From the NCBI GenBank assembly GCA_045128915.1, contig JBGVIT010000006.1:81302-105301 (forward strand): 24,000 nt of DNA, read 5' to 3'. The position numbers and the translations under genes are program-made. The DNA comes from Clostridia bacterium (lineage in GTDB: Bacteria; Bacillota; Clostridia; UBA1381). This document shows, in pieces, positions 2,286 to 10,727 of the stretch; position 1 is the first letter of the stretch, and every line of letters starts with the position of its first letter. Below the pieces are notes generated by a model. It was given only the letters and a program-made list of their open reading frames with translations. It had not been told where the DNA came from and did not search any database.

Positions 2286-3641
2286 ATGGAAAACAAAAGA
2301 AGTAGTTTTACCGGCAAAATAGGCTTTGTACTTGCAGCGGCAGGTTCAGCAGTCGGCTTGGGAAATATATGGAGATTTCCGTATCTTGCAGCTAATTACG
2401 GAGGCGGTATTTTTTTACTTGTGTATCTTGTGCTTGCTGTAACTTTTGGCTTTGCTCTTATGACAGCAGAGGTTGCAATAGGTAGAAAAACAGGACTTAG
2501 TGCTATTGAAGCATTTAAGAAGTTAAAAAGTAAATGGGCATTTATAGGATATATCGAAGCTTTGATACCTATTATAATTCTTCCGTATTATTCGGTTATC
2601 GGCGGCTGGGTAACAAAATATCTGTTTGAATTTACAGTAGGAAACGGTGCCGCAACTGCTGCAGACAGCTTTTTTGGCGGATTTATAGGACAGCCTGTAT
2701 CACCACTTGTCTGGTTTGCAATTTTTATCGGTATAACAGCGCTTATAGTCTGGTTCGGTGTAGAAAAGGGCGTAGAGAAAGTCAGCAGAATAATGATGCC
2801 TGTGCTTGTGGTATTGTCTGTTATTATAGCTGTGTATGTTGCGTTTATTCCTGGTGCTAAAGACGGAATTTTGTGGTATGTTCTTCCTGATTTCAGCCGT
2901 TTCTCGTTTACAACTGTGCTTGCGGCTATGGGACAGCTTTTCTATTCAATGTCACTGTCAATGGGCATCATGATAACATACGGCTCATACATGAAAAAGG
3001 ACGTAAACTTAGAATCATCAGTAAGACAAATTGAAATTTTTGACACAGCTATTGCATTCATTGCAGGCCTTATGATAATTCCTGCAGTATTTGCTTTTTC
3101 AGGCGGAAATGAGGAAGCTCTCGGAAAAGGTCCGGGACTTATGTTTGTTACACTTCCCAAAGTGTTTGAAAGCATGGTTGGCGGCAGAATAGTAGGATTG
3201 TTGTTCTTTGTGCTGGTTCTCTTTGCGGCACTTACATCTTCAATTTCTCTTATGGAAACAGTTGTATCCATATTCAGAGACAAGCTTGGACTTTCAAGAA
3301 ATAAAGCTTGCTTGGCAGTTCTTGCAATTTCATTGATTTTAGGAATTCCGTCATCTCTCGGTAATGGTATCTGGAGCGGAATCAAGCTTATAGGTATGGA
3401 TTTCCTCACATTCTTTGATTTTATAAGTAACAGCGTTCTTATGCCTGTTGTTGCATTCTTAACTTGTATTTTCATTGGCTATATTGTAAAGCCAAAGACG
3501 GTTATTGAAGAAGTTGAGCTTACGGGCAAATTTAAGGCAAAGGGATTATTTGTTGTAGTAATTAAATATTTTGCACCCATATGTATAGCGCTCATCCTTA
3601 TATGCTCTATATTGGAGGCTATGGGCGTTATGAGTATTTGA
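2286..3641 (+). CDS. Sodium-dependent transporter, neurotransmitter:sodium symporter (SNF/NSS) family
   Basis: Signature GSAVGLGNIWRFPY near the N-terminus. Multi-pass hydrophobic protein of 451 aa. GGAGG RBS at 2275-2279. Confidence 0.9.
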   Translation: MENKRSSFTGKIGFVLAAAGSAVGLGNIWRFPYLAANYGGGIFLLVYLVLAVTFGFALMTAEVAIGRKTGLSAIEAFKKLKSKWAFIGYIEALIPIIILPYYSVIGGWVTKYLFEFTVGNGAATAADSFFGGFIGQPVSPLVWFAIFIGITALIVWFGVEKGVEKVSRIMMPVLVVLSVIIAVYVAFIPGAKDGILWYVLPDFSRFSFTTVLAAMGQLFYSMSLSMGIMITYGSYMKKDVNLESSVRQIEIFDTAIAFIAGLMIIPAVFAFSGGNEEALGKGPGLMFVTLPKVFESMVGGRIVGLLFFVLVLFAALTSSISLMETVVSIFRDKLGLSRNKACLAVLAISLILGIPSSLGNGIWSGIKLIGMDFLTFFDFISNSVLMPVVAFLTCIFIGYIVKPKTVIEEVELTGKFKAKGLFVVVIKYFAPICIALILICSILEAMGVMSI

Positions 3642-3652
3642 TGATTATCCAA

Positions 3653-3688
3653 ACAGAAATCCGCAGATGCGGATTTCTGTTTTTTTTT
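3653..3688 (+). terminator. Rho-independent terminator of the SNF transporter gene
   Basis: 12-bp perfect stem ACAGAAATCCGC (3653-3664) / GCGGATTTCTGT (3669-3680), loop AGAT, then T8 (3681-3688). Confidence 0.9.
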
Positions 3689-3782
3689 GTTGTAAATTTA
3701 CACTAAAAAATTCTATACTTCGAGTTATTTTTCAAAAAAATGTAAAAAAAGAAATTACCAACAAAAAAATATTCTTATGTTC

Positions 3783-3811
3783 TTGACATAAGTCTTTGAA
3801 TATGGTATCAT
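3783..3811 (+). promoter_or_regulatory. Sigma-A promoter of the ilvE / oxidoreductase / acyl-CoA synthetase operon
   Basis: Consensus -35 TTGACA (3783-3788), 17-nt spacer, extended -10 TGgTATCAT (3803-3811). A/T-rich UP-like tract upstream (3700-3780). Confidence 0.65.
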
Positions 3812-3846
3812 TTATTAAAGTAATTCAGGAAGGTTTGGATGTTGTA

Positions 3847-3966
3847 ATGAGTTTAGTAGCGACTTTGTTCAGCGACAACATAATAATTATAAGCGCGCTA
3901 ATTATTGCCATTGCGATTATTAGTGCTGATTGTGGTGCCGTTAAGTCTTTAAAGGTTGGTTGCTGA
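3847..3966 (+). CDS. Putative 39-aa Ile-rich leader peptide (MSLVATLFSDNIIIISALIIAIAIISADCGAVKSLKVGC)
   Basis: ATG 3847 to TGA 3964-3966, not in the supplied ORF track because it is short. 9/39 codons are Ile (ATA/ATT at 3880-3891, 3901-3906, 3910-3912, 3916-3921). AGGAAGG RBS at 3827-3833. A 2-codon mini-ORF (ATG TTG TAA, 3839-3847) overlaps the start as TAATG. The ORF sits between the promoter and a terminator directly upstream of ilvE. Confidence 0.45.
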   Translation: MSLVATLFSDNIIIISALIIAIAIISADCGAVKSLKVGC

Positions 3967-4016
3967 ATATTACAATTATTTAAATGCATTGTTTACCAAT
4001 TAAAAGCTTACGGCAC
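3935..4016 (+). promoter_or_regulatory. Putative antiterminator hairpin of the ilvE leader
   Basis: 3935-3941 pairs with 4010-4016, 3943-3945 with 4007-4009, and 3947-3950 with 4003-4006 (14 bp, two 1-nt bulges). The helix is extended by 3954-3960 : 3995-4001 (7 bp including 2 GU). It sequesters the 5' arm of the terminator. The leader stop codon lies in its apical loop. Confidence 0.45.
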
Positions 4017-4032
4017 AAGCCGTAAGCTTTTT
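4002..4032 (+). terminator. Leader (attenuator) terminator upstream of ilvE
   Basis: Stem GCTTACGGC (4006-4014) / GCCGTAAGC (4019-4027), loop ACAA, extendable by 4 A-U pairs, then T5 (4028-4032). Only 37 nt with no promoter-like hexamers separate it from the ilvE ATG. Confidence 0.75.
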
Positions 4033-4069
4033 CTGAATTAAAAAAACAAGAAAAAAGAGGCGTCTTATT

Positions 4070-5134
4070 ATGGAAATTAAAATCACAAGAACAACACAGC
4101 CAAAACAAAAGCCCGCACCGGGTACAAAGCTTGGTTTCGGTAAGATTTTTACCGACCATATGTTTGTAATGAACTATACCGAAGGTAAAGGTTGGCACGA
4201 TGCAAGAATAGTGCCTTATGCACCTATTTCTCTTGATCCTTCATGTATGGTATTCCATTACGGTCAGGAAATGTTCGAAGGTCTTAAAGCATATCGTGGT
4301 GCTGACGGCAAGGCAAGACTGTTCAGACCTGATATGAATGCAAAGCGTGCCAATAAGAGTAACGAAAGACTTTGTATTCCTGAAATTCCTGAAGAGGATT
4401 TTGTAGAAGCAGTTAAGGCGGTAGTGAAGGTTGATGAGGATTGGATTCCTGAAGATGACGGAACATCTTTGTATATCAGACCTTTTGTAATTGCAACAGA
4501 TGAATTTCTTGGTGTTGCGCCTTCAAAGACATATATGTTCATTATCATACTTGCTCCAAGCGGTGCATATTATGAAAACGGTCTTGCACCCGTGGGCATC
4601 TGGATTGAGGACGACTACGTAAGAGCAGTTAAGGGTGGTATGGGCTTTGCAAAGACCGGCGGTAACTATGCAGCAAGTCTTGCAGCTCAGGTAAAGGCTC
4701 ACGACGACGGATATTCTCAGGTGCTTTGGCTTGACGGCGTTGAAAGAAAGTATATCGAAGAAGTTGGAGCGATGAATATTTTCTTCAAGCTTGACGGAAA
4801 AATTGTAACTCCTATGCTCAACGGAAGTATCCTTCCCGGTGTAACAAGAAACTCTGTAATCCAGCTTTGTAAGTCTTTGGGCTACGAAGTAGAGGAAAGA
4901 AAGGTTTCAGTTGACGAGCTTGTAGAAGCTGCTAAAAACGGAACATTAGAAGAATGTTTCGGAACAGGTACAGCAGCAGTAATCTCTCCCGTTGGTAAGC
5001 TCAGATACAAAGATGATGTATTTGAAATCAACAACAACGAAATCGGTGCAGTAAGCCAGAAACTTTACGACACAATCACCGGTATTCAATGGGGAAAATG
5101 CGAGGATGAGTTTAATTGGACAATAACTCTTTAA
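4070..5134 (+). CDS. ilvE: Branched-chain amino acid aminotransferase (PLP fold type IV)
   Basis: FGKIFTDHMF, FEGLKAYR, TGGNYAASL, LPGVTR and GTAA motifs typical of the ~355-aa BCAT subgroup. RBS AAAGAGG at 4054-4060. Confidence 0.93.
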   Translation: MEIKITRTTQPKQKPAPGTKLGFGKIFTDHMFVMNYTEGKGWHDARIVPYAPISLDPSCMVFHYGQEMFEGLKAYRGADGKARLFRPDMNAKRANKSNERLCIPEIPEEDFVEAVKAVVKVDEDWIPEDDGTSLYIRPFVIATDEFLGVAPSKTYMFIIILAPSGAYYENGLAPVGIWIEDDYVRAVKGGMGFAKTGGNYAASLAAQVKAHDDGYSQVLWLDGVERKYIEEVGAMNIFFKLDGKIVTPMLNGSILPGVTRNSVIQLCKSLGYEVEERKVSVDELVEAAKNGTLEECFGTGTAAVISPVGKLRYKDDVFEINNNEIGAVSQKLYDTITGIQWGKCEDEFNWTITL

Positions 5135-5802
5135 AATATAAAAGAATTTCTGTTTTCGTAGGTCACTACGGAAGCGGCAAAACAAATGTAGCTTTAAACT
5201 ACGCTCTTTCCGTAAGGGAACATGAAAAGCACGTAGCAGTAGCTGACCTTGATATTGTAAATCCGTATTTCAGGACTCAGGATAGTGCTAAAATGCTTGA
5301 AGATAAAGGCATTCGCCTTATTTCATCAGAATTTGCAGGTTCAAATGTGGATTTGCCCGCGCTTCCGGCAGATGTTTATACTATATCTCATAACCACGAT
5401 ATATATGCGGTGATGGATGTTGGTGGCGATGACAGAGGTGCGTTGGCACTTGGAAGATATGTTCCTGCAATAGTAGAAGAAAATAATTATAACGTATTTT
5501 TTGTTATTAACAAATTCAGACCTCTTACAAAAACTCCCGAACTTACAGTCGAGGTGCTTCGTGAGGTGGAGCAAGCGGCAGGCATAAAGGTTACTGCGCT
5601 TATAAACAACTCCAATCTCGGCGAGGATACCACGTGTGAAGATATAGAAGGCTCTGCAAAATATGCAGAAGAAGTAAGCAGGCTTTCAGGAATTCCTGTT
5701 GCATTTACAACGGTGCGTGAGGATTTGAGTGAAAAGGTGAATTTGGATAACATAATGCCTATAAGGTTGTATGTACAACAAAGCTGGCAAAAGGAGGTAT
5801 AA
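5116..5802 (+). CDS. P-loop NTPase of unknown function (SIMIBI/MinD-GPN-like)
   Basis: Walker A GHYGSGKTN at aa 16-24 and a Walker-B-like hhhDVGGDD. TTG start at 5116 preceded by GAGGA (5102-5106). It overlaps the ilvE 3' end by 19 nt and stops 5 nt before the ferredoxin-subunit ATG. The start codon is somewhat uncertain. Confidence 0.65.
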   Translation: MDNNSLKYKRISVFVGHYGSGKTNVALNYALSVREHEKHVAVADLDIVNPYFRTQDSAKMLEDKGIRLISSEFAGSNVDLPALPADVYTISHNHDIYAVMDVGGDDRGALALGRYVPAIVEENNYNVFFVINKFRPLTKTPELTVEVLREVEQAAGIKVTALINNSNLGEDTTCEDIEGSAKYAEEVSRLSGIPVAFTTVREDLSEKVNLDNIMPIRLYVQQSWQKEV

Positions 5803-5807
5803 TACTT

Positions 5808-6011
5808 ATGGCAAAGGTAACTTTTAAAAAGGATTTGTGTAAGGGTTGCGGACTTTGTGTTGGCGCTTGCCCAAAGCATATTGTAGAGCTTACAGGTGAA
5901 ATAAATGCAAAAGGATATCATCCAGCTGCTGTAACAGATCCTGAGCAGTGTATTGGCTGTGCATTCTGTGCAACAATGTGTCCTGATTGCGTAATTACAG
6001 TAGAAAAATAA
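5808..6011 (+). CDS. 2-oxoacid:ferredoxin oxidoreductase delta subunit (2x[4Fe-4S] ferredoxin)
   Basis: Two CxxCxxCxxxCP motifs (CKGCGLCVGACP, CIGCAFCATMCP) in 67 aa. AAGGAGG RBS at 5791-5797. Immediately precedes the alpha/beta/gamma subunits. Confidence 0.85.
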   Translation: MAKVTFKKDLCKGCGLCVGACPKHIVELTGEINAKGYHPAAVTDPEQCIGCAFCATMCPDCVITVEK

Positions 6012-6032
6012 TTTGAGAAAGGATTGAATTCA

Positions 6033-7100
6033 ATGTCAGAAAAGGTTTTGATGAAGGGTAACGAAGCTTTGGCTGAAGCTGCTATTATGGCGGGCTGCCG
6101 TCACTATTTCGGATATCCTATAACACCTCAGACTGAGGTTGCAGCATATATGTCAAAGAGAATGCCCAAGATTGACGGTGTATTTCTTCAGGCAGAAAGT
6201 GAAATTGCTGCTATAAATATGGTAATCGGAGTTGCCGCAACGGGTAAGAGAGTTATGACTTCAAGCTCCAGCCCCGGTATATCTCTTAAAAGTGAAGGAC
6301 TTTCATATCTTGCAGGATGCGATGTTCCTGCTCTCGTAGTTAACGTACAGCGTGGCGGCCCCGGTCTCGGCGGTATTCAGCCATCACAATCAGATTATTT
6401 CCATGCAACAAGAGGTCCCGGTCATGGTGATTTCCACATGATTGTTCTTGCTCCTGCATCAGTTCAGGAAATGGTTGACCTTACATTCAAAGGCTTTGAC
6501 CTTGCAGAAAAATACAGAATGACTTCTATGCTTCTTTCAGATGGAACAATGGGACAGATGATGGAGCCTGTAACACTTGATATGGGCGAAATCAAAGAAT
6601 ACGACAAGTCATGGGCTCTCACCGGAACAAAATGCGAAAGAGCTCCGAGAATTGTCAACTCACTTTTCCTTAAGCCTGAAGAGCTTGAAGTAACTAACTT
6701 TGAAAGATACGAAAGATATAAGCAGATTGAAGAAAATGAAGCAATGTTTGAAGAGTACAGAATGGAAGATGCAGAGGTTTGTATCGTAGCATTCGGTGTT
6801 GCTTCAAGAGTTTCAAAAAATGCTATTGACAAAGCAAGAGAGATGGGAATAAAGGTTGGTATGATAAGACCAATCACTCTCTGGCCATTCCCCAAGAAAG
6901 CTTTGGCTGCAGCTGCAGATAAGGTTAAGTCATTTGTTTCTGTTGAGCTTTCAATGGGCCAGATGATTGACGACATCGAGCTTGCAATCCGTTGCAAGAA
7001 GCCGGTTCTTCTTTGTAACCGTGTTGGTGGTATGATTCCCACAGTTGAAAATGTTCTTGAGAAAATTTGCGAAGCAGATAAAGTAGGAGGTGCGAAGTAA
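6033..7100 (+). CDS. 2-oxoacid:ferredoxin oxidoreductase alpha subunit (VorB/KorA-like)
   Basis: N-terminus MSEKVLMKGNEALAEAAIMAGCRHYFGYPITPQTE is characteristic of the OFOR alpha subunit. I prefer ATG 6033 (RBS GAGAAAGGA at 6015-6023, 9-nt spacing) over the track's TTG at 6024. Confidence 0.9.
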   Translation: MSEKVLMKGNEALAEAAIMAGCRHYFGYPITPQTEVAAYMSKRMPKIDGVFLQAESEIAAINMVIGVAATGKRVMTSSSSPGISLKSEGLSYLAGCDVPALVVNVQRGGPGLGGIQPSQSDYFHATRGPGHGDFHMIVLAPASVQEMVDLTFKGFDLAEKYRMTSMLLSDGTMGQMMEPVTLDMGEIKEYDKSWALTGTKCERAPRIVNSLFLKPEELEVTNFERYERYKQIEENEAMFEEYRMEDAEVCIVAFGVASRVSKNAIDKAREMGIKVGMIRPITLWPFPKKALAAAADKVKSFVSVELSMGQMIDDIELAIRCKKPVLLCNRVGGMIPTVENVLEKICEADKVGGAK

Positions 7101-7861
7101 TGAAAGTATTTGAAAAACCCCATGCTCTGACAGATAATGTACTCCATTACTGCCCCGGATGTACTCATGGTATTATCCACCGTCTTGTTGCTGAAGCGAT
7201 TGACGAGCTTGGAATAGAAGGCAGAACTATTGGCGTTGCTCCCGTTGGCTGCAGCGTTATGGCTTATAACTACTTTAATGTTGATATGGTTCAGGCAGCT
7301 CACGGAAGAGCTCCCGCTGTTGCAACGGGTGTTAAGCGTTCTGATCCGAATAATATAGTATTTACTTATCAGGGCGATGGCGACCTTGCCGCTATTGGTA
7401 CAGCTGAAACAGTTCATTCAGCAGCGCGTGGTGAAAATATCACAGTAATATTCGTAAACAACGCTATATACGGTATGACCGGCGGCCAGATGGCTCCTAC
7501 AACACTTCCCGGTCAGGTAACACAGACATCACCCTATGGCCGTGATATTGAAAGCGTTGGCTATCCTGTAAAGGTTTGTGAAATGCTTTCACAGCTTGAC
7601 GGTGCAGCATATCTTGAAAGAGTAGCTGTAAACAACGTTAAGAACGTAAGAAATGCTAAAAAAGCAATTAAGAAAGCTTTTCAGAATCAGGTAGAAGGAA
7701 AAGGCTTCTCACTTGTAGAAGTAGTATCTACTTGTCCTACAAATTGGGGACTCACACCTGAAAAAGCACTTGAATGGCTTGAAGAAAACATGATTCCGTA
7801 TTATCCTTTGGGAGTATATAAGGATAAGTATGCCGAGAAGGAGGATGGAGCTAATGACTAA
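7100..7861 (+). CDS. 2-oxoacid:ferredoxin oxidoreductase beta subunit (TPP-binding)
   Basis: CPGCTHG Fe-S ligand region and the TPP motif GDGDLAAIG...NNAIYGMTGGQ. The start ATG overlaps the alpha stop (TAATG). Confidence 0.9.
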   Translation: MKVFEKPHALTDNVLHYCPGCTHGIIHRLVAEAIDELGIEGRTIGVAPVGCSVMAYNYFNVDMVQAAHGRAPAVATGVKRSDPNNIVFTYQGDGDLAAIGTAETVHSAARGENITVIFVNNAIYGMTGGQMAPTTLPGQVTQTSPYGRDIESVGYPVKVCEMLSQLDGAAYLERVAVNNVKNVRNAKKAIKKAFQNQVEGKGFSLVEVVSTCPTNWGLTPEKALEWLEENMIPYYPLGVYKDKYAEKEDGAND

Positions 7862-8393
7862 ACAAATATTACTCGCAGGCTTCGGTGGTCAGGGAATACT
7901 TTTCTCAGGAAAGTTCCTTGCATATGAAGGCTTGCTTGAAGGCAAAGAGCTTAGCTGGCTTCCGTCATACGGACCTGAAATGCGTGGCGGAACTGCAAAC
8001 TGCAGCGTTATATTAAGCGATGAACCCGTTGGCTCTCCTATCGTAACAAATCCTGACATTCTCATTGCGATGAACCTGCCTTCATTGGATAAGTATGAGG
8101 ATGCAACAGTTGCGGGCGGTCAGATATTTGTTGACAGCTCTCTTATTGAAAGAAAGGTTCAGCGCACAGATGCAGAAGCATACTATATCCCTGCAACAAA
8201 GCTTGCATCAGATAACGACCTTTCAGGTCTTGCAAATATGATAATGATAGGTTATATGATTAAAAAGTCAGGAATAATCCCTTATGAAAATATTGCAAAA
8301 ACAGTAGAAAAGATAGTTCCTGCAAAAAAACAGCATCTTGTTGAAGCAAACAAGAAAGCTATTGAGCTTGGTTATAACTATATCGAGGCTTAA
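7854..8393 (+). CDS. 2-oxoacid:ferredoxin oxidoreductase gamma subunit
   Basis: [17 protein letters not shown] is typical of the gamma subunit. ATG 7854 has a strong AAGGAGGA RBS (7838-7845) and overlaps the beta stop. The track's upstream ATG at 7830 lacks an RBS. Confidence 0.88.
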
Positions 8394-8428
8394 TACAAAA
8401 AAAGTATTGTGAAAGGAGTAAAAATATT

Positions 8429-8977
8429 ATGAATGAACAAATCAAAGATATTGGTATGCGTCTTGCGTGCTTAAGAGAGGATATGGAATTTACTATACAA
8501 CAAATGGCTGAAAAACTTGGCATTGACGAGAATACATACATAGCGTATGAGAAAGGCGAGCTTGATTTTTCATTCAGCTTCATTTACAATGCAGCAGAAA
8601 TATTAGGTGTTGACGTACTTGACCTTATAAGCGGAAGTGCGCCTACGCTCTCTATGTGCTGTATGGTACAAAAGGGCAAGGGCTACTCTGTTAAAAGAGA
8701 TGATGAGTACGACTACAAGCACCTTGCATACACTTTCCGTAACAAAAAGGCAGAGCCTTTCCTTGTTACAATCTCTCCTGATGTAAAACCCGTTATGCAT
8801 GGACATGACGGTCAGGAATTCAACTATGTCATATCCGGCAAACTGAAGTTTTGTATAGGTGACATTTCATATGAGCTTACAGAGGGTGACAGCGTGTATT
8901 TTGATGCAAGCATACCCCATGCAGAAATGGCACTTGACGGAAAAGAAGCACAGTTCATTGCTGTGGTTGTAAAATAA
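8429..8977 (+). CDS. XRE-family HTH transcriptional regulator with C-terminal cupin sensor domain
   Basis: The N-terminal HTH_3-like segment (IGMRLACLRE...TIQQMAEKLGIDENTYIAYEKG) plus cupin motifs (HGHDGQEFNYVISGKL...GDSVYFDASIPH) give a PuuR-like architecture. AAAGGAG RBS. Confidence 0.85.
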   Translation: MNEQIKDIGMRLACLREDMEFTIQQMAEKLGIDENTYIAYEKGELDFSFSFIYNAAEILGVDVLDLISGSAPTLSMCCMVQKGKGYSVKRDDEYDYKHLAYTFRNKKAEPFLVTISPDVKPVMHGHDGQEFNYVISGKLKFCIGDISYELTEGDSVYFDASIPHAEMALDGKEAQFIAVVVK

Positions 8978-9004
8978 AGCAGTATTTCGGTTTGGAGGAT
9001 AATT

Positions 9005-10693
9005 ATGGCAATCTATGAAAAATTTGTGGGAGCATCAAGAGATGATTTTATCTCTCTTGATGATGCCCAGAAGAACTATAAACTAACATATAATGATGAT
9101 TTTAACTTTGCATACGATGTAGTGGATGAATTAGGCAAAACAAAGCCTGAAAAGCTTGCAATGGTTTGGGTATCAAAAGATGGGGAAGAAATGAGATTTA
9201 CTTTCCACGATATGATGATTTACTCAAACAAGGCGGCAAACTATCTCAACTACATGGGTATCCAGAAGGGTGATAAGGTACTGCTTGCTATGAAGCGCAG
9301 TTATTACTTCTGGTTTGTTATGCTGGGACTTCACAAAATCGGTGCAGTAGCCGTTCAGGCAACTAATATGCTTAAGGCTAAGGATTATGTATATCGCTGT
9401 AATGCAGGCAAGATAAAGGCAGTAATTCTTACAGGCGACGGTTCGGAAACTGAATATTTTGATGAAGGCGGCGACCAATACGAAACAATAGAAAAGAAAT
9501 TCGTATTGGGACATAAAAAAGCAGGAGAAGGCTGGATTGATTTTGAAGAAGGCTTTGCTCTTGCAAATACTGAATGGTCAAGACCTACCGGTGATCAGGC
9601 AATTATGGCTGATGATATGATGCTTATGGCATTTTCATCAGGAACATCCGGTTATCCCAAAATTATTACACACAACTTCAAATATCCTTTGGGACATATT
9701 ATGACCGGAGTTTTCTGGCATAGGGTAGTTGATGGCGGAATCCATTTTACAGTTTCCGACACCGGTTGGCTTAAGAGTCTTTGGGGAAAATTCTACGGAC
9801 AATGGTTTGGCGAAAGTGCTGTGTTTGTGTACGACTTTGACAAGTTTGACGGAGCGGATATTCTGTCAAAACTTGAAAAGTATAAAATCACAACCTTCTG
9901 TGTGCCGCCTACTATGTACAGAATGATTCTTCAAAACGATGTTAAGAAGTATGACCTTTCATCTTTGGTTCATTGCTGCACAGCAGGTGAAGCTTTGAAT
10001 CCTGAGATTTATAATAAGTGGTACGATGCTACGGGGCTTAAGATTTACGAAGGCTTTGGACAGACAGAAACAACTCTTTGTATTGCTACAATCAAGCCTT
10101 GGACACAGCCGGTACCCGGTGCAATAGGATTCCCCGTTCCTGGATTTGATGCACACATCATCGACGATCAGGGACATAGCTGCTCACGTGGTGCTACCGG
10201 TGAAATCTGTATTCGTGTTCTTAGCAATGAAAGAAAGCCTTGCGGCTTGTTGGATACATACAATTTCAGCGAAGAAGACACCTTAAAAGCTCTTCATGAC
10301 GGATTTTATCATACGGGTGATACTGCGTACAGAGATGAAAAAGGTATGTTCCGTTATGTAGGAAGAAATGATGATGTTATTAAGTCATCAGGCTATCGTA
10401 TCGGACCTTTTGAAATCGAAAGCGTTCTCCTTGAGCATCCGGCAGTTCTTGAAGTTGCAGTAACCGGAGTCCCTGATGCCGTTCGTGGATTTGCTGTAAA
10501 GGCAACTATTGTGTTGGCTTCAGGATTTGTCGGCTCCGATGAACTTACAAAAGAGCTTCAGACCTACGTTAAGACAAATACAGCTCCATATAAGTATCCA
10601 AGAATTGTTGAATACGTATCGGAGCTACCCAAAACATTTAACGGAAAAATCAGACGTGCTGAAATCCGTGAAAACGATTCAAAGAATAACTAA
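9005..10693 (+). CDS. AMP-forming medium/short-chain acyl-CoA synthetase (ACSM/MacS-like adenylate-forming enzyme)
   Basis: FNFAYDVVDELG N-terminal motif of the ACSM family, AMP-binding signature SSGTSGYPK, YGQTE-like GFGQTET, GDTAYRDEKG..GRNDDVIKSSGYRIGPFEIE, and C-terminal catalytic GKIRR. GGAGG RBS. Confidence 0.88.
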   Translation: MAIYEKFVGASRDDFISLDDAQKNYKLTYNDDFNFAYDVVDELGKTKPEKLAMVWVSKDGEEMRFTFHDMMIYSNKAANYLNYMGIQKGDKVLLAMKRSYYFWFVMLGLHKIGAVAVQATNMLKAKDYVYRCNAGKIKAVILTGDGSETEYFDEGGDQYETIEKKFVLGHKKAGEGWIDFEEGFALANTEWSRPTGDQAIMADDMMLMAFSSGTSGYPKIITHNFKYPLGHIMTGVFWHRVVDGGIHFTVSDTGWLKSLWGKFYGQWFGESAVFVYDFDKFDGADILSKLEKYKITTFCVPPTMYRMILQNDVKKYDLSSLVHCCTAGEALNPEIYNKWYDATGLKIYEGFGQTETTLCIATIKPWTQPVPGAIGFPVPGFDAHIIDDQGHSCSRGATGEICIRVLSNERKPCGLLDTYNFSEEDTLKALHDGFYHTGDTAYRDEKGMFRYVGRNDDVIKSSGYRIGPFEIESVLLEHPAVLEVAVTGVPDAVRGFAVKATIVLASGFVGSDELTKELQTYVKTNTAPYKYPRIVEYVSELPKTFNGKIRRAEIRENDSKNN

Positions 10694-10727
10694 AAAAATA
10701 GTGTCCTGACGGACACTATTTTTTTTA
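10691..10727. terminator. Bidirectional rho-independent terminator between the convergent acyl-CoA synthetase and tagA-like genes
   Basis: Stem ATAGTGTCC (10698-10706) / GGACACTAT (10711-10719), loop TGAC. A7 upstream and T8 downstream give a U-tract on either strand. Confidence 0.85.

Follow-up and report, generated by a model that had tools for sequence, protein, structure and literature searches.

How is ilvE, the gene for a branched-chain amino acid (BCAA) aminotransferase, controlled in uncultured gut Clostridia, a group whose regulation is essentially unstudied? The question is raised by a 24,000-nucleotide stretch of a Clostridia bacterium genome (contig JBGVIT010000006.1, positions 81,302 to 105,301; hereafter the window), in which a short open reading frame (ORF) crowded with isoleucine (Ile) codons lies between a promoter and ilvE, followed by a terminator that competes with a second RNA hairpin. 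An earlier sequence-only reading had proposed this leader as a candidate ribosome-mediated attenuator. RNA folds, orthologous leaders and an exclusive association with ilvE support that proposal: judged from its sequence and its relatives, the leader is very probably a transcription attenuator in which a translating ribosome senses the supply of isoleucyl-tRNA and which controls an operon of ilvE, genes for a VorB-type 2-oxoacid:ferredoxin oxidoreductase (VOR) and a gene for an MbcS-like short branched-chain acyl-CoA ligase. It belongs to an undescribed leader family that is absent from Rfam. The mechanism is textbook; what is new is the bacterial group and the type of operon.

Leader architecture and two exclusive hairpins

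Direct reading of positions 3600-4200 bore out, coordinate by coordinate, the promoter, the 39-codon ORF with its nine Ile codons, the terminator, the alternative hairpin and a two-codon mini-ORF that the sequence-only reading had described (Table 1). Because a separate terminator closes the upstream SNF-family transporter gene, the leader begins its own transcription unit. Its promoter scores 11/12, has a TG in addition and outranks every other promoter-like site in 3400-5400; transcription would start at ~3818. The same scan finds no promoter-like site between the leader terminator and ilvE, in agreement with the earlier claim that ilvE must be transcribed through this terminator. A short ORF with a Shine-Dalgarno sequence (SD) and a start codon thus lies between the promoter and the first structural gene, an arrangement kept in all five types of leader described below: in all other types TTGACA/TGnTATAAT stands at an equal distance from the leader ATG, an SD-like GGAG/GAGG is placed 7-12 nt 5' of it, and the ORF starts at a homologous position. 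The window ORF contains 9 Ile, 4 Leu and 3 Val codons, i.e., 16 of 39 codons specify a branched-chain residue, and its Ile-codon cluster matches the proposed product of the operon.

Downstream of the Ile tract, the leader can form two alternative structures. The terminator alone, a perfect 13-bp repeat, has a free energy of -19.7 kcal/mol (z -6.6); it was overlooked by an automated terminator scan, a tool artefact, as some of the T-run is taken up by the long stem. Towards its 3' end the ORF carries a degenerate copy of the terminator 3' arm, and this segment, 3935-3950, pairs better with the terminator arm than any other part of the window leader (-16.4 versus -11.2 kcal/mol for the next best). 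The resulting hairpin, 3935-4016 (base 3935-3950:4003-4016), reaches -24.9 kcal/mol (z -3.65), a value matched by 0 of 200 shuffles, and the energies of the two structures are thus in line with the competition proposed from the sequence. Since the antiterminator takes up the whole terminator 5' arm, the two structures are mutually exclusive. The free window leader gains -17.1 kcal/mol when the terminator arm is added to it; dinucleotide shuffles gain -6.2 +/- 2.3, and 0 of 300 do as well. In the untranslated full leader (3818-4036) the minimum free energy (MFE) is -67.4 kcal/mol (z -4.4) and the terminator is formed; in this fold the ribosome-binding site, the start codon and the first codons are paired with 3950-3990.

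These elements suggest the following sequence of events. Transcription would start at ~3818 and a ribosome would load at the leader SD and ATG (3847). With plentiful Ile-tRNA, the ribosome would pass the nine Ile codons and occupy 3935-3966 while the polymerase makes 4003-4031; with 3935-3966 occupied, the 4002-4014/4019-4031 hairpin would form and transcription would end at the U-tract. With scarce Ile-tRNA, the ribosome would stall between 3880 and 3921, its leading edge at or before ~3934, and 3935-3950 would pair with the fresh 4003-4016 at the -24.9 kcal/mol given above, such that the terminator would be blocked and the polymerase would read into ilvE. Translation of the ORF, stalling, the timing of polymerase and ribosome and the physiological response are what we infer from this arrangement.

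Folding with simulated ribosomes agrees with the proposed switch. As the decision would be kinetic, we chose nascent RNAs, folded as far as the terminator loop and masked to 13 nt past a chosen A-site codon; complete-leader folds with ribosome masks were uninformative, the terminator nearly always winning once its 3' arm is present. For a mask placed at each of the nine Ile codons in turn, the terminator 5' arm is paired with 3935-3950 over 11 of its 11 nt, whereas a mask on the stop codon leaves only a -1.6 kcal/mol remnant of that pairing. The contrast between stall and stop is alike in all six loci to which footprint masking was applied, and in all types 12-21 nt separate the last clustered Ile codon from the antiterminator arm. 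The window therefore combines an exclusive antiterminator with a matching stall/stop geometry and with a terminator that no promoter follows before ilvE.

Table 1. Features of the leader and of the genes that follow it (window positions)
Feature	Position	Strand	Remarks
Terminator of upstream gene	3651-3682	+	14-bp stem then T-run; ends the SNF-family transporter gene (2286-3641, Pfam SNF)
Promoter	3783-3811	+	-35 TTGACA 3783-3788; 17-nt spacer; extended -10 TGgTATCAT 3803-3811
Leader SD AGGAAGG	3827-3833	+	13 nt before ATG 3847; 5 nt before ATG 3839
Two-codon mini-ORF ATG TTG TAA	3839-3847	+	Stop overlaps leader ATG (TAATG)
Leader ORF MSLVATLFSDNIIIISALIIAIAIISADCGAVKSLKVGC	3847-3966	+	39 codons plus TGA (stop 3964-3966)
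Ile tract	3880-3921	+	Nine Ile codons, ATA ATA ATT ATA ... ATT ATT. ATT. ATT ATT: 3880-3891 (four consecutive), 3901-3906, 3910-3912, 3916-3921
Local hairpin in Ile tract	3895-3926	+	GCGCUAAU.AUUGC CAUU GCGAU.UAUUAGUGC; seen in MFE and centroid folds
Antiterminator 5' arm (GUGCCGUUAAGUCUUU)	3935-3950	+	In 3' part of ORF; degenerate copy of terminator 3' arm
Antiterminator upper part	3954-4001	+	Stem 3954-3960:3995-4001 plus apical hairpin; encloses stop codon 3964-3966
Shared segment	4003-4016	+	Antiterminator 3' arm = terminator 5' arm
Intrinsic terminator	4002-4032	+	Perfect 13-bp repeat 4002-4014/4019-4031, 100% complementary; loop ACAA; T5/U5
ilvE SD AGAGG	4056-4060	+	9 nt before ATG
ilvE, type II BCAA aminotransferase	4070-5134	+	Pfam Aminotran_4; NCBIfam BCAT equivalogs
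CbiA/ParA-like P-loop protein	5116-5802	+	Weak Pfam matches
Ferredoxin-like delta subunit	5808-6011	+	2x[4Fe-4S]
VorB alpha	6024-7100	+	NF005507, 529 bits (cutoff 399)
Thiamine pyrophosphate (TPP) beta subunit	7100-7861	+	
Gamma subunit	7830-8393	+	
Helix-turn-helix (HTH)-cupin regulator	8429-8977	+	
MbcS-like AMP-forming acyl-CoA synthetase	9005-10693	+	Best NCBIfam match MbcS, 410 bits, below cutoff 850
Bidirectional terminator	10692-10725	.	15-bp stem, T-runs on both strands; operon end

Several smaller features accompany the leader. The local hairpin within the Ile tract may act as a pause or "segment 1" element. The two-codon mini-ORF stands at the optimal distance from the SD, and termination-reinitiation might pass ribosomes from it to the leader start; the sequence-only reading was right about its presence and its better spacing, but it is confined to the window type, being absent from L012, L014, L021, L024, L042 and the sister lineage. 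Gene finders call an extended ORF of 54-56 aa that starts at TTG 3796 or ATG 3802, within or upstream of the -10 box and without an SD; we rejected it on these grounds and because the homologous start of all other types aligns with ATG 3847. On the opposite strand, a 54-aa ORF (3825-3989) is also rich in Ile and has no supporting signals; it merely mirrors the ATT/ATA repeats, as AATAAT also yields Ile codons in another frame, and a similar one occurs in L012. Finally, an 11-nt inverted repeat with 91% complementarity joins 3821-3831, in the 5' untranslated region and SD, to 4030-4040 after the terminator stem (TTTCTGAATTA); by this pairing, the leader SD of full-length or readthrough transcripts could be occluded.

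A leader family under selection for codons and RNA

A scan of GTDB species genomes for IlvE returned 80 loci at 78-90% identity, all from Oscillospiraceae/Acutalibacteraceae-like metagenome-assembled genomes (MAGs) of gut or rumen. Five of them (L012, L014, L021, L024 and L042) show the window-like architecture, with ORFs of 30-37 codons that include 6-12 Ile, and leaders are thus found at 6 of 81 ilvE loci, many relatives having a plain promoter. An Ile-rich stretch 5' of ilvE in L022 and L023 was ruled out as a leader, being located upstream of the promoter. A peptide profile found 18 called peptides among 5.8 billion proteins, and a profile search of 1.84 billion cluster representatives, where the family amounts to 6 clusters, gave two further peptides; a metagenome scan with a terminator-only pattern yielded nothing beyond the contig already known as L042. 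In all, 23 distinct leaders fall into five divergent peptide types, each consisting of promoter, SD-ATG, ORF (6-12 Ile of 30-39 codons), terminator and ilvE, and the terminator stands at the same place in all 23 sequences. These are type W, the window type; type A, ..NFGIICIGLIIAIIIA.AVII....SAICRA; type B, ..FFNIISITLIAIIIAVIIR...SAICRA; type C, MKLF.LINLISVISIIIDVIINIS..NAVCRV; and type D, L021. The SD, the ATG, the frame and the position of the stop relative to the antiterminator arm are kept in all five. In all ten peptide clusters that were looked up, an Aminotran_4 gene follows the peptide at 100-125 nt, and the peptide never occurs away from ilvE. CbiA-like, Fer4 and POR genes come next wherever enough downstream DNA was recovered, and the upstream neighbours vary (SNF, PHP, MerR or HTS).

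The abundance of Ile codons is far above background. We compared the leader with 4954 ATG-initiated ORFs of 15-70 aa, taken in six frames from 674 kb comprising the window and the 80 related loci. Only 12 of the 4954 contain at least 7 Ile within 16 codons; five of these are leaders located 104-148 nt upstream of ilvE on the same strand, and two more are antisense shadows of leaders. The window ORF is in the top 0.1% of the set for Ile density. Moreover, Ile makes up 40-75% of all I, L, V, F and M residues in the leaders (53% in the window), compared with 25% in the polytopic SNF protein, and the L012 leader contains 12 Ile, 2 Val and no Leu.

Substitution patterns indicate selection on codons and RNA rather than on the peptide. 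In type A, the leader has a synonymous difference (pS) of 0.27 and a nonsynonymous difference (pN) of 0.145 (ratio 0.54), whereas the first 70 codons of ilvE have a pS of 0.58 and a pN of 0.049 (ratio 0.08). The Ile columns are invariant and the interspersed positions vary (I/F/L/D/G or N/P/R/C/S), i.e., the Ile codons persist while the peptide drifts, the very pattern that the sequence-only reading had associated with attenuation. Synonymous sites are frozen at the 3' end of the ORF, where it pairs with the terminator arm: the last five type A codons, GCT ATT TGT CGT GCA, are invariant including their third positions, except for the final unpaired base. Consistent with this, RNAalifold applied to types A, B and C from the ORF end to the terminator loop returns a 12-pair helix (GCUA:UAGC + UGUCGU:RYGGCA + GC:GC), and the conserved C-terminus AICRA/AVCRV is therefore the antiterminator arm. 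The spacer between stop codon and terminator is the least conserved part of the leader, and even here a stem equivalent to that of the window is kept in L115, L110 and L109, and in types A and B as AAAAAGUUAC/GUAAUUUUU.

Close relatives preserve the window copy. Six further independent assemblies from other samples (L081-L086) have an identical leader peptide and an intact leader; in one of them, L082, the shared arm carries a C-to-U change that both helices accommodate as G-U pairs. L115, whose IlvE is 94% identical, retains the frame, the stop position, the antiterminator (-24.7 kcal/mol) and the terminator (-17.9 kcal/mol) with 4 replacements among the 15 C-terminal residues, and two additional pairs arise from a G-to-C change 5' of the arm combined with one in the terminator loop.

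Evidence against attenuation and rival explanations

A number of observations weigh against a ribosome-mediated attenuator. The SD of the window leader is far from its ATG (13 nt), and the two-codon ORF upstream is the better spaced of the two. Bacillota are generally classed as bacteria of "runaway" transcription, with ribosomes behind the polymerase (PMC13323073), and ribosome-timed attenuation is therefore harder there; such an attenuator implies local synchronisation, probably by pausing. A ribosome at the stop codon covers only ~3949-3976, so that the base of the antiterminator, 3935-3948, is blocked only in transit: the stall/stop geometry of the sequence-only reading agrees with the mask folds, but the arm is fully covered only during passage and not at the stop. 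Moreover, the untranslated nascent window RNA, with the terminator 3' arm blocked, already prefers the antiterminator, and there is no trp-like default termination; termination in the window therefore appears to need translation through 3935-3966. In ribosome-free nascent folds of L012, L024 and L042, the arm is sequestered instead.

Support for the antiterminator is also uneven across the family. Its energy gain is significant for types W, B and C and no better than shuffles for types A and D (23-191 of 300), and the duplex scan, clear for the window, is inconsistent for types A-C, in which the best complement is not always at the ORF end. In type C (L014 ~180-200; L101), the strongest pairing partner of the terminator 5' arm plus loop (-17.2 kcal/mol) is found within the Ile-codon region (ATA TCT GTC ATT AGC) and the ORF-end complement is weaker (-11.6 to -15.2 kcal/mol); an additional alternative pairing may form there. 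Nor does RNAalifold detect any two-sided compensatory change in the antiterminator pairs of types A-C. The changes within this helix are all one-sided and pair-preserving, so that the covariation of the arms envisaged by the sequence-only reading is borne out as preserved pairing, but not as compensatory exchange.

A further objection comes from the nearest sister lineage, L109-L114, whose IlvE is 93% identical (e.g., L110:433-703 aligned to window 3780-4072). It shares the SNF-ilvE synteny, the promoter, the SD and the ATG with the window and lacks ~47 nt spanning the Ile core; its leader ORF varies despite identical IlvE, being either MNAIGFRNNILFMLCR (16 codons) or MNTACFF (7 codons), and its antiterminator is strong (-21.6 and -23.0 kcal/mol) and its terminator weak (-9.8 kcal/mol). 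Because four more distant types retain the Ile tract, this loss reads as secondary erosion. Orthologous leaders without the Ile run were among the findings that the sequence-only reading would have taken as a refutation; the sister lineage is such a case, and the four other types keep the run.

The same lineage is among the arguments for a different switch, one made of RNA alone or worked by a protein (an unknown riboswitch, an RNA-binding protein or a tRNA-sensing element), with the ORF and its Ile codons incidental: L109-L114 keep promoter, antiterminator and terminator but neither the Ile core nor a conserved ORF, the full leader is unusually structured (z -4.4), and the operon itself encodes an HTH-cupin regulator. 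We consider this explanation unlikely. No Rfam model matches the window at the gathering threshold, and 3640-4120 gives only noise at E<=10, with the T-box model RF00230 included; the only permissive match, to Phe_leader (25.9 bits, gathering 55), is on the wrong strand over the upstream terminator. The search does detect such elements, as it identified a T-box (RF00230, 97 bits, gathering 93) at L068:3662-3904 (+) in a Ruminococcus sp. MAG. A T-box, a significant match to which the sequence-only reading would have taken as a refutation, is thereby ruled out for the window, as are known riboswitches and small RNAs. An aptamer would have to sit in the spacer, the least conserved part of the leader, whereas all five divergent types keep the SD, ATG, frame and stop position, no Ile column varies and Ile enrichment is far above background. 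A promoter repressed by CodY was likewise rejected: the CodY box (AATTTTCWGAAAATT) has 4 matches with 3 mismatches in the 24 kb against 4.4 expected, a chance level, and none in 3780-4070.

The L068 T-box lies directly 5' of an orthologous ilvE (starting at 4001), the same gene under another tRNA-sensing mechanism. In another MAG, an FMN riboswitch (117 bits, L063:3880-3998, - strand) adjoins the ilvE locus and is unrelated.

Two further explanations would deny the leader a role in Ile sensing. It could be a decaying or constitutive element whose terminator holds expression at a low basal level or closes a short non-coding transcript, as the presence of leaders at only 6 of 81 ilvE loci, the plain promoters of many relatives and the eroded ORF of the sister lineage might suggest; this is very improbable for a copy that is intact and identical in six independent assemblies (L081-L086), with an architecture kept across lineages of ~80% identical IlvE, frozen synonymous sites and an antiterminator far stronger than chance. 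Alternatively, the ORF could be a real gene for a small hydrophobic peptide, single-pass in the membrane or toxin-like, that came to lie beside ilvE by chance. Its product does resemble a transmembrane helix with polar or charged residues after it, four of six such ORFs are called as genes by gene finders, and the sequences are fairly similar within types A and B. Nevertheless, a pN/pS of 0.54 against 0.08 in ilvE, together with constrained synonymous sites, is the opposite of protein-level selection, the conserved AICRA/AVCRV C-terminus coincides with the RNA helix to the terminator arm, and Ile overwhelmingly predominates among the hydrophobic residues (as many as 12 Ile and no Leu). The peptide is always 100-125 nt 5' of ilvE with a terminator between, which disfavours the ilvE-independent membrane peptide considered in the sequence-only reading, and its family is tiny (6 clusters in 1.84 billion representatives). 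We hold a peptide gene of this kind to be scarcely credible, and attenuation by a ribosome translating the Ile codons remains the preferred reading of the leader.

The regulated operon and its relation to known attenuators

Downstream of the leader, the genes from ilvE to the acyl-CoA synthetase (4070-10693) probably form one operon, with no + strand terminator before the bidirectional one at its end, which lies between the synthetase gene and a convergent WecG/TagA-family glycosyltransferase gene. IlvE is well supported by NF009897 (512 bits, cutoff 307) and TIGR01123 (427 bits, cutoff 250). The P-loop protein matches no NCBIfam family; its gene stands invariably between ilvE and that of the VOR delta subunit, and the protein might help the oxidoreductase to mature or serve it as an accessory factor. 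MbcS, the best match of the synthetase, is the 2-methylbutyrate/isobutyrate-CoA ligase of Staphylococcus aureus (PMC10026030, PMC11167679). In most of the 80 loci, ilvE is linked to the P-loop gene, vorDBAC, the HTH-cupin gene and the MbcS-like synthetase gene (acs), and this recurrent linkage suggests a conserved module that converts isoacids to BCAAs. Three gene orders occur, acs>ilvE>..., ...vorC>ilvE and ilvE>..., and leaders are found only where ilvE is first; in the other two orders, no Ile, Leu or Val leader precedes the first gene (acs or the P-loop gene).

Rumen anaerobes are well established to carboxylate isoacids reductively, and fibre-degrading gut and rumen bacteria have long been known to require isoacids. 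From the predicted induction on Ile shortage, which would be sensible only before biosynthetic genes, and the gene content, the operon would be anabolic: the ligase would convert 2-methylbutyrate to 2-methylbutyryl-CoA, VOR would carboxylate it reductively to 2-oxo-3-methylvalerate, and IlvE would yield Ile. We therefore propose, tentatively and with slightly less than even confidence, that the Ile-only leader marks ilvE-P-loop-vorDBAC-(HTH-cupin)-acs as an Ile-starvation-induced operon that turns an isoacid into an amino acid (2-methylbutyrate to Ile). In the searchable literature we found neither genetic regulation of isoacid reductive carboxylation nor a regulatory link between ilvE and VOR, and no Ile-specific leader described in Clostridia or before an ilvE-VOR operon. 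An almost purely Ile-specific leader that is ON when Ile-tRNA is scarce predicts a biosynthetic direction for a widespread ilvE-VOR-ligase cluster, which is relevant to the isoacid requirement of fibre-degrading gut and rumen bacteria; if true, the direction and substrate preference of BCAA synthesis through VOR in uncultured Clostridia of gut and rumen would for the first time be backed by cis-regulatory evidence. Ribosome-timed attenuation would then also be at work in a Bacillota class generally taken to have uncoupled ("runaway") transcription.

The closest textbook parallel is the enterobacterial ilvL leader of ilvGMEDA, which likewise has a leader ORF of branched-chain codons, a segment shared by terminator and antiterminator, ilvE within the operon and, as proposed for the window, readthrough upon ribosome stalling. 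Control by ilvL is multivalent, its codons being a mixture of Ile, Leu and Val, whereas the window leader is dominated by Ile, shows no sequence homology and matches no Rfam leader family. Its host also differs, being an uncultured, Oscillospirales-like member of the Clostridia, as does its operon, in which VOR and acyl-CoA ligase genes take the place of the de novo ilv genes beside ilvE. The parallel to ilvL drawn by the sequence-only reading therefore holds for the logic but not for the untranslated default, which in the window is predicted to be readthrough, the nascent RNA folding into the antiterminator.

Within Bacillota, the nearest counterpart is the experimentally supported attenuator of S. 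aureus ilvD (ilv-leu), with a 26-aa leader containing Ile and Leu codons, in which mutations of the leader stop codon and of the terminator relieve repression (Kaiser et al. 2018, PMC5794164). It resembles the window leader in phylum, in pairing a terminator with an alternative antiterminator and in not being a T-box, and the effect of its mutants is paralleled by the natural 7-codon leader variant in L109 and L114; the eroded leader ORFs of L109-L114 as a whole recall its leader stop-codon suppressor mutants (PMC5794164). The S. aureus leader, however, is Leu-rich and Leu-responsive, serves a de novo ilv-leu operon under CodY and belongs to the class Bacilli, and it is supported by experiment, whereas the window leader is a prediction from sequence. 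Leader peptides for BCAA genes have also been predicted in Lactococcus lactis, Streptococcus spp. and Corynebacterium glutamicum (PMC5794164; for the upstream ORF of Corynebacterium ilvB, PMC10272879). These share with the window the control of BCAA genes by leader ORFs in Gram-positive bacteria, and differ in taxa, in their leu or ilvB operons, in their mixed or Leu/Val-rich codons and in having no VOR or isoacid link. With S. aureus supported and L. lactis and Streptococcus predicted, the earlier statement that such an attenuator would be unusual in Bacillota was too strong; attenuators of the upstream-ORF type are still being found by comparative genomics (PMC8632094).

The T-box of L068 provides the comparison nearest to the gene itself. 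It stands upstream of an orthologous ilvE, senses tRNA charging and chooses between terminator and antiterminator, as the window leader is proposed to do, but it binds the tRNA directly without translation and carries the conserved T-box sequence that is missing in the window. The T-box, the plain promoter and the eroded leader found before ilvE in relatives of the window thus constitute a natural series for the gain, swap and loss of an attenuator at a single gene, and a useful one for asking whether ribosome-polymerase coupling suffices in Clostridia.

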